Part shown: piece by piece, positions 43,221 through 44,318 of the stretch
Layout: each line of letters starts with the position of its first letter
Numbering within the stretch: the first letter of the stretch is position 1
Assembly: GCF_963921235.1 (NCBI RefSeq)
Contig: NC_086108.1
Span: forward strand, 14,818,001 to 14,882,000
DNA from: Mobula hypostoma
Lineage: Eukaryota
Direction: 5' to 3'
Length of the DNA: 64,000 bases
Notes under the pieces: generated by a model
The model's input: the letters and a program-made list of their open reading frames with translations, nothing else
What the model was told of the DNA's origin: nothing
The model's database searches: none
Program-made: the position numbers and the translations under genes

Positions 43221-43353
43221 TTTTCATTCATAGCTTGACACACCAGACAGTCAGCCATTCTTGTCTGACGTGTAATGTCAGAATTGGTCTCCTTTCGGAT
43301 TAACCGGGTCACCGTATGAACGTTCTTGATTCGACCCCTGTTTTTTTACGAGC
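43221..43353 (-). mobile_element. 133-bp retroposed insertion of unknown family
   Basis: 13-bp TSD ATAATGAACCTCT (43208-43220, 43354-43366); minus strand ends ATGAATGAAAA. Confidence 0.75.
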
Positions 43354-43455
43354 ATAATGAACCTCTGAAAGCACTTGATCGCCGTAGATGTGAGTGCTAT
43401 TGGACGACGGTTGTTAAGGCAGCTCACCCGGCTCTTCTTGGGCACTGGTATAATT

Positions 43456-44008
43456 ATTGGGGTATATGGGGTGTCAGGGAGGGGTAGCACCTCTGGTGGG
43501 GGAACGTATCGCATCCTTCTCAGGGCAGTTTGTCCCCTTTGGTCCCCACCTGGCACTCAGCTCTCACCTGTGGCTCCCCGTAGCTGTTTGCATACGACAG
43601 CAGCCACACCCTGGGCAACGGCTTCAATAAGTCGGCTAAACCAGGAGAGGATAGCCGACGGGTCTCAAATCCTCGGTGAGATAGGGAGTTGTCTATCCCA
43701 GCATGTGAAGACAGACTCCGGCGGATTGAGCGGACGAGACCAATGGAAGGTCCAATGGTCAAGAATGCGGTCACTGCAAGCGTCGTGGAACATGTAGAGC
43801 AGGACAAGACACAGAAGATGTCCTGGTCATCCACTGCACCTAGTCCTATCTCCAGCCGTCTCGACTCTGTCTTGCCACTGGATCCAGATGAGAATTGGGA
43901 AGAGAGAGTGAGTCTGACGCTGCGCAACTCTCCCTCACTTAAATCCAAATCACACGCTAGTCTCGACACCATCATAATGGTGTCGAGGTCCTCATCGATG
44001 GACGAACA
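43456..44008 (+). mobile_element. Non-autonomous RTE-type short element
   Basis: 10-bp TSD TGGTATAATT (43446-43455, 44009-44018); RTE 5'-UTR-like GACTCCGGCGGATTGAGCGG; perfect 11-bp 3' hairpin. Confidence 0.8.
43468..43649 (+). ncRNA. Putative HDV-like self-cleaving ribozyme
   Basis: Hand-folded P1 GGGGUGU/ACACCCU, P2 CUCACCUG/CAGGAGAG, P3 GGC/GCC, P1.1 CC/GG, P4 CGGCUU/AAGUCG, J4/2 GCUAAAC. Confidence 0.7.
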
Positions 44009-44318
44009 TGGTATAATTGTTGCCCTTGTGAAGCAGATGGAAACTTCTGACTGGAGCAATGAAAAATTGAAAGTGCCTTTGAATACCCCAGCCAATTGAT
44101 TGGCACGGGTTTTCAGAGCATTACCAGGCACTGGGACCTGTCACCTTGCGAGGGTTCACTCTCCTGAAAGACAGCCTGATGTACAGTTTTTACAGCAGGA
44201 AAACAGGTCCTTTGACCCAACTGCTCCATGCTGACCAAGATTCCCCGTGCAACCTAGACCCATTTAACAAGTATGGCCCATAAAACCTTTCCAATCCATG
44301 TATCTGTCCAAATGTCGT

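Follow-up and report, generated by a model that had tools for sequence, protein, structure and literature searches.

Is the 5' end of a short retroposon in the genome of Mobula hypostoma set by a self-cleaving ribozyme, and if so, where does this ribozyme cut? The question is raised by a stretch of 64,000 nucleotides (nt) of contig NC_086108.1 (assembly GCF_963921235.1, positions 14,818,001 to 14,882,000, forward strand), called the window below. A first-pass annotation had proposed a ribozyme like that of hepatitis delta virus (HDV) at the head of a short retroposon in this window, with an extra hairpin in its loop L3 and a cut before G43468. We found that window positions 43459-44009 are one dead, worn copy (~550 bp) of a non-coding retroposon that resembles a short interspersed nuclear element (SINE) and belongs to the elements without long terminal repeats (non-LTR). 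In the 5' ~190 nt of the family, the helix order and the key core nucleotides of an HDV-like ribozyme are present as proposed, while the proposed cut position had to be abandoned. Judged from the sequences of the family, it is an evenly balanced proposition that these elements carry a delta-type self-cleaving ribozyme that cuts before their nucleotide 1 (43459).

According to this proposal, the first ~194 nt of the source genes would form a hepatitis-delta-type self-cleaving ribozyme of unusual build. The paired region P1 would consist of nt 1-7 (GGGGUGU) with ACACCCC, and the joining region J1/2 would be a 95-nt structured domain whose closing stem uses a second GGGGUGU. P2 (10 bp), P3 (3 bp), P1.1 (CC/GG) and P4 (6 bp) would complete the fold, with the catalytic C held in J4/2 (GCUAAAC), and a 20-nt hairpin inserted where L3 rejoins P3 would turn L3 into an internal loop. 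We infer that the element is transcribed within longer host transcripts, because it has no recognisable polymerase III promoter. The ribozyme would then cut just 5' of nt 1, fixing the exact 5' end, and the reverse transcriptase of a partner long interspersed nuclear element (LINE) would copy the RNA from the 3' stem-loop and the (AAC)n tail.

The retroposon family and its candidate 5' fold

We searched the whole genome (3.5 Gb) for relatives of the window copy. Among 4761 candidates 40 were scored, and 40/40 of the scored matches are 93-100% identical; at least seven of the 40 are identical to the consensus-like nt 1-194. The window copy is ~6% diverged, and its best relatives are 93-94% identical to it. 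A 24-mer of the core, with up to 3 mismatches allowed, has 2917 + 2931 occurrences genome-wide (reversed control, 0), and the family comprises at least ~5,800 copies. An older family, represented by 23 copies that are ~70-74% identical to the window copy, has the same head. Its consensus, built on these 23 copies, is CpG-aware.

The alignment of 30 copies with their flanks has sharp boundaries, and each copy has its own unrelated duplication. The copies begin with GGGGTRTATGGGGTGTCAGGG and end with a perfect 11-bp stem-loop followed by ...GGACGAAC(AAC)n. At 30 loci sampled without selection, the copies are mostly of full length, and a few, which start at query positions 32 and 68, are 5'-truncated. 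Thus, the hallmarks of non-LTR elements are all present: the target-site duplications vary, the 3' end is defined and has a simple-repeat tail, and an occasional copy is truncated at the 5' end. The sharp ends, the individual duplications and the few 5'-truncated copies together indicate that the family spread as a non-LTR retroposon, which bears out the short retroposon of the first-pass annotation. In the window copy, g43459 can be assigned to either the left duplication or the element. The 3' stem-loop is presumed to be the recognition site for the partner reverse transcriptase.

Helix coordinates were read from the sequence and motif positions were recomputed. Every helix of the first-pass annotation is found where it had been drawn. 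Its P1 pairs GGGGUGU (43468-74) with ACACCCU (43606-12) and has a basal G.U pair, and its P2 pairs CUCACCUG (43563-70) with CAGGAGAG (43642-49) around a single A/A mismatch. P3 is formed by GGC (43572-74) and GCC (43603-05), and L3 consists of UCCCCGUA (43575-82) followed by a hairpin with the arms GCUGUU (43583-88) and GACAGC (43596-601). The GG of P1.1 (43613-14) faces C43576-77. P4 pairs CGGCUU (43619-24) with AAGUCG (43629-34), including one G.U pair, and J4/2 (GCUAAAC, 43635-41) contains C43636.

The family consensus improves these helices: P1 is 7/7 (GGGGUGU/ACACCCC), P2 has 10 bp (CUCUCACCUG/CAGGUGAGGG) and P4 is 6/6 (CGGCUU/AAGCCG). The departures of the window copy from the consensus are mostly due to CpG decay. 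T43612 is such a decay state, shared by 11/55 copies including the window copy; the G.U pair that had been assigned to the cut site is therefore a change of this one copy, and the consensus has a G-C pair there (G1-C155). As P1 of the window copy has an A/C mismatch and its P2 is mismatched at two positions, this copy is probably crippled as a ribozyme. It fails the delta-ribozyme descriptor itself, owing to the P2 mismatch.

How far the match exceeds chance depends on the descriptor and on whether one copy or the family is considered. A loose descriptor with the limits of the first-pass annotation (L3 of at most 35 nt, J1/2 of at most 110 nt) is matched by 26/3000 dinucleotide shuffles, and P1, P2 and P3 alone by 980/3000. 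With P1 fixed at nt 1, the loose descriptor is matched by 2/11,429 shuffles. A strict descriptor (P1 of 7 bp without G.U, P2 of at least 8 bp, P4 of 6 bp) is passed by the family consensus and by 0/11,429 shuffles. The sequence GGGGTGT occurs anywhere in 10-16% of shuffles of the 5' domain (16,298/100,000 for the G-rich first 100 nt) and exactly at nt 1 in 534/100,000. In silico, the young consensus and the CpG-aware old consensus both satisfy the delta-ribozyme descriptor, with the double-pseudoknot helix order P1, P2, P3, P1.1, P4 and canonical junctions. The core bases lie at canonical spacing: a U and a G five apart in L3, CC/GG in P1.1, and the J4/2 C with an A three bases later. The match in the single window copy proves little alone, and the family-level match is well beyond chance.

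Which repeat would form P1

At the start of the consensus, GGGGTGT is present twice in direct orientation, at nt 1-7 and, after an intervening AT, at nt 10-16. The first-pass annotation had used the second copy (43468-74) as the 5' strand of P1, with the RNA cut before G43468. This register pairs perfectly in the consensus and is also accepted by the descriptor. However, the 5' ends of genomic copies, which the annotation had expected at G43468, lie elsewhere. The start lies at nt 1 (43459) in 39 of the 54 near-full-length copies, at nt 2-6 in 15 and at nt 10 (43468) in none, and the predicted cut would sit 9 nt inside the element rather than at its end. All 54 copies keep sequence upstream of nt 10, and the old and young families do not differ in nt 1-9. 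If the RNA were cut at nt 10, these nine nucleotides would be lost to the next copy.

The second GGGGUGU has another partner. It pairs in the closing stem of J1/2, of which window positions 43469-78 are the 5' strand. This stem is GGGUGUCC/GGACACUC in the old family and GGGUGUCAGG/CCUGGCACUC in the young family, and it has changed on both strands between them (one deletion and two substitutions). The nested part of the fold amounts to −76.2 kcal/mol if P1 is formed by nt 1-7 and to −64.7 kcal/mol in the register of the first-pass annotation, which is thus ~11.5 kcal/mol worse. To the −76.2 kcal/mol, P2 would add −16 to −20 and P1.1 −3.3 kcal/mol; the comparison of this with −85.7 kcal/mol for the nested optimum, in which no pseudoknot penalty is included, speaks for the delta fold. 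In one contig from another organism, nt 16 is a C, which fits the J1/2 stem and breaks the annotated P1; this is a single loose end and weak. The exact model with P1 at 43468-74 is highly improbable. P1 can instead be formed by nt 1-7, and the predicted cut would then fall exactly at the first base of the element, just 5' of 43459: a cut immediately 5' of P1 coincides with the 5' end of the element for nt 1-7 and not for nt 10-16.

Conservation between the families and competing explanations

We compared the old and young consensuses along the element. They differ at 0/9 positions in nt 1-9, at 18/94 (19%) in the J1/2 domain, at 8/91 (9%) in the core from P2 to P2', and at 18/76 (24%) downstream. 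The eight core changes are confined to L3 positions 4-5 (CC versus AA), J1.1/4 (GCAA versus UACA) and P4. In P4 the changes are compensatory, one pair flipping from C-G to G-C and another from U.G to U-A. Both strands of P1, P2, P3, the arms of the L3 hairpin, P1.1, the U, C, C and G of L3, and the C and AA of J4/2 are unchanged. The hairpin that the first-pass annotation had noticed at the 3' end of L3 is thus present with arms conserved in two families. L3 positions 4-5 are also AA and UA in contigs from three other organisms, and the neighbouring U, C, C and G do not differ among the rows listed for these contigs.

Could this domain be a structured but non-catalytic leader, such as an internal polymerase II promoter or a protein-binding or stability element? 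Its nested hairpins would then be the J1/2 domain, a long irregular hairpin closed by P2, and P4, with nt 1 as the transcription start, and the delta-like P1, P1.1 and core bases would partly be coincidence in a G-rich sequence. The J1/2 stem, P2 and P4 are indeed all formed in the nested optimum, in which nt 1-10 stay unpaired, and the only compensatory helices, P4 and the J1/2 stem, belong to this nested fold. The presence of GGGGTGT in 10-16% of the 5'-domain shuffles and the ~1% rate of loose-descriptor matches also speak for such a leader. However, ~20 positions that are unpaired in the nested fold and essential in the delta fold (nt 1-7, CCCC with GG, UCC, G, C, AA) show 0 changes between the families; at the 19-24% rate of their neighbours, 0 changes in 20 are expected ~1% of the time. 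A leader would likewise leave to chance the complementarity of P1 exactly at nt 1 (534/100,000 shuffles) and the passing of the strict descriptor (0/11,429 shuffles), and its nested fold is no stabler than shuffles (z ~ −1). We regard the non-catalytic leader as having a substantial chance of being correct, though one short of even.

Several results weigh against a delta-type ribozyme at nt 1. Competing nested helices exist; one of them, UGUGGCU/AGCCACA, against which the first-pass annotation had cautioned, is real and part of the nested minimum-energy fold. The nested fold is not unusually stable (z = −0.98 and −1.05). The suggested covariation check was run in the form of pair counting. In 28 real copies, family-level double changes are found only in P4 (CG 13 / GC 9 / UA 3; GC 13 / AU 7), while P2, P3 and P1.1 have no double changes; P1 and the L3 hairpin each show one such event, limited to a single copy. 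Because P1, P2, P3 and P1.1 do not vary between the families, the helices on which the pseudoknot depends show no covariation. A subfamily with A at nt 6 of P1 (43464; A6) comprises 12/55 copies, 9/12 of them linked to T at 43976, and has no compensating change; its spread despite the P1 mismatch also favours the leader. The 26 copies genome-wide with U at the partner position (U150) include 4 with A6 and 22 with G6, that is, no enrichment.

The build of the candidate also counts against it. In HDV, L3 is a closed loop (nt 20-27), and the usual range is 7-8 nt. Here L3 has 28 nt (8 nt, a 19-nt hairpin and 1 nt) and is no short closed loop. A narrow keyword search of the literature found no precedent for the 20-nt insertion, which adjoins the active site and may not be tolerated there. 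A G.U wobble at the cut-site pair is typical of delta-type ribozymes, although not universal, and the consensus has G-C instead. Compared with the short form C-N-A-A, J4/2 has two additional bases.

No Rfam model matched the element at threshold, which also speaks for the leader. For the young core alone, the sole match is an HDV family, RF02682 (ribozyme from F. prausnitzii). This match counts for the delta-type ribozyme, although its score (13.2 bits, E = 1.7) is far below the threshold of 44. The alignment covers the shared stretch GG-GCAAC-P4-GGCUAA of the young family and leaves the 5' half unaligned. The old-family core matched no Rfam model, RF02682 included. The lack of a match at threshold and the empty result for the old core likewise weigh against the ribozyme; at the same time, they are consistent with the claim of the first-pass annotation that standard descriptors would miss such a variant.

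The discrete length, the high copy number and the scarcity of 5'-truncated copies would also suit an ordinary polymerase III SINE that is transcribed from nt 1 and has a tRNA-, 5S-, 7SL- or other small-RNA-derived head. However, ARAGORN found no tRNA in the element, and no small-RNA head was detected with Rfam even at E up to 10. The young consensus also has an internal TTTT run near nt 59-62, and another such run lies in the old body. The element is probably not a polymerase III SINE, and we consider this origin very unlikely.

Some observations concern individual parts of the element. At P4 columns 171/182, the G-C of the old consensus is replaced by A-U in 7/18 old copies, and both sides are CpG sites; these copies could represent an old compensated subfamily or coupled decay. 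In two contigs of another organism (run X16; L017:1630 and 1638), both arms of the L3 hairpin are shorter by one base, which in the 5' arm is missing from the U-run at its top; this would correspond to the loss of one U-A pair. One copy (G000:C5:66443065-66443221, minus strand) has a J1/2 domain intermediate between those of the old and young families; thus, intermediate subfamilies exist. A 9-nt deletion in the tail (window 43997-44003; alignment columns 577-589) is found in 9/55 copies including the window copy, sits between short direct repeats and marks a tail subfamily. Two copies of the family (L048/L049; G000:C1:21776707 and 21777283) are arranged head to tail at a distance of 576 bp; the second is the more diverged one (88.7%). 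A group of sequences named Family B was considered as an independent use of the core without P1 and was rejected. It is a DNA transposon with terminal inverted repeats that contains a 5'-truncated old copy, and it is uninformative on function. This transposon is ~1.07 kb long and non-autonomous, has the inverted repeats TACAGTGGATTCTGGTTAATTGGG... (L064:1036-2108; also in L065, L076, L080 and L081) and has itself multiplied.

We also examined the open frames of the locus. An 89-codon frame in the element (43743-44009, plus strand) starts at ATG and is open to the 3' end of the element, and a stop-free frame of 206 codons lies on the opposite strand (43520-44140, minus strand). Pfam has no domain in the 89-codon frame or in two flanking frames. 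A coding reading was rejected, given open frames on both strands and no Pfam match. The old family has stops in the region homologous to the open frame, and the open frames in the element are therefore probably due to chance. The 5' flank contains a minus-strand open frame (43278-43445) without a Pfam match; a stretch within it resembles a LINE reverse-transcriptase motif, and the landing site of the element may be an old LINE fragment. When the 180-nt tail was searched against the window and 90 loci (~360 kb), only copies of the same retroposon family and no partner LINE were found. The features of the window copy are collected in Table 1.

Table 1. Coordinates of the retroposon copy, its flanking duplications and the parts of its candidate 5' fold (window numbering)
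Feature	Position	Strand	Basis or remark
Left target-site duplication, ggtataattatt	43447-43458	+	11/12 identical to 44010-44021
Retroposon copy	43459-44009	+	Genome-wide matches, aligned boundaries
First copy of the doubled strand, GGGGUAU here, GGGGUGU in consensus	43459-43465	+	Best candidate for P1 5' strand; 39/54 copies start here
Second GGGGUGU copy (P1 5' strand of the first-pass annotation)	43468-43478	+	Pairs with 43549-58 in minimum-energy folds
Variable interior of J1/2 domain	43479-43548	+	18/94 positions of nt 10-103 differ between old and young consensus
3' strand of J1/2 closing stem, CCUGGCACUC	43549-43558	+	Minimum-energy folds
P2 5' strand, CUCUCACCUG	43561-43570	+	10 bp in consensus, invariant between families
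P3 5' strand, GGC	43572-43574	+	
L3 proper, UCCCCGUA	43575-43582	+	U43575/G43580 at U20/G25 spacing; C43576-77 are P1.1 partners
Extra hairpin at 3' end of L3 (GCUGUU / loop / GACAGC) and one linker base	43583-43602	+	Arms identical in old and young consensus
P3 3' strand, GCC	43603-43605	+	
P1 3' strand, ACACCCU here, ACACCCC in consensus	43606-43612	+	
P1.1 GG	43613-43614	+	Also in CpG-aware old consensus
P4 hairpin, CGGCUU caau AAGUCG	43619-43634	+	Sole helix with compensatory changes in pair counting
J4/2, GCUAAAC	43635-43641	+	C43636 is candidate catalytic cytosine; A43639 three bases on; invariant between families
P2 3' strand, CAGGAGAGGA here, CAGGUGAGGG in consensus	43642-43651	+	Two mismatches in window copy
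Perfect 11-bp 3' stem-loop, CUCGACACCAU / AUGGUGUCGAG	43962-43987	+	Conserved among copies
3' tail; consensus ends ...GGACGAAC(AAC)n	43988-44009	+	Window copy is the 9-nt deletion variant with a very short repeat
Right target-site duplication, ggtataattgtt	44010-44021	+	11/12 identical to left duplication

Known ribozymes and the place of the candidate among them

Ribozymes linked to RTE elements in mosquitoes have a large J1/2 and a normal L3. More broadly, delta-type ribozymes are described at the 5' ends of the non-LTR elements R2, RTE, baggins and L1Tc/NARTc (PMC3774820, PMC6765202, PMC3185411, PMC3383444). The R2 ribozymes described in PMC3774820 have a J1/2 from 23 to >700 nt and a variable P4, and a quarter of them carry one or two mismatches at the top of P1; the A6 subfamily is therefore tolerable, although this is not support for the ribozyme. 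As in that description, our candidate would be a 5'-terminal double pseudoknot, which in R2 frees the element RNA from a longer co-transcript, and it has a P1 of 6-7 bp right after L3/P3, a long J1/2 and a variable P4. R2 codes for its own protein and targets only 28S rRNA genes, in contrast to this non-coding, dispersed element. Among the R2 ribozymes in PMC3774820, none is described as carrying an additional helix in L3. Cleavage has been demonstrated for R2 ribozymes and is predicted for the present candidate.

Other elements provide parallels in their biology. For promoter-less RTE and baggins elements and some non-autonomous elements, PMC6765202 describes intronic transcription and 5' processing by a delta-type ribozyme, and this retroposon is likewise a promoter-less non-LTR element with a putative 5' delta-type ribozyme. 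In Trypanosoma cruzi, the autonomous LINE L1Tc and its short non-autonomous derivative NARTc have the same 5' ribozyme (PMC3185411, PMC3383444). Unlike the candidate, the L1Tc ribozyme is, in these reports, compact (77 nt), doubles as a promoter, is found in a protist and has no L3 insertion.

PMC13635239 describes what U20/G25, C75, the A after it and P1.1 do in the genomic HDV ribozyme. The candidate resembles the genomic HDV and C. briggsae HDV ribozymes, as described there, in its helix order, in a P1.1 of two G:C pairs, in an L3 U and G five apart, and in a J4/2 C with an A three bases later. It differs from them in its L3 of 28 nt including a hairpin, its J1/2 of 95 nt, its G-C cut-site pair and a J4/2 that is two bases longer. 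Delta-type ribozymes conserve only about five nucleotides according to PMC4870747. As read from its consensus, the element fits the delta-ribozyme frame in helix order, core bases and position, and departs from it by the L3 hairpin, the doubled P1 strand and the G-C cut-site pair. A further-reaching version, which we think unlikely, is an active ribozyme of a new delta sub-architecture, in which the extra helix would open L3, the competing pairing of the duplicated P1 strand would tune cleavage, and sense intronic copies would cut host pre-mRNAs.

Searches for delta-type ribozymes use descriptors that fix the size of L3. If the candidate is active, the fold would be more tolerant than assumed, and such searches would miss members. 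If there is no cleavage, the 5' domain would be an ordinary structured leader of an abundant retroposon. If the delta-type reading is true, the family would offer thousands of natural sequence variants for structure-function work, and it would add a vertebrate SINE-like family to the elements that set their own 5' end by self-cleavage.

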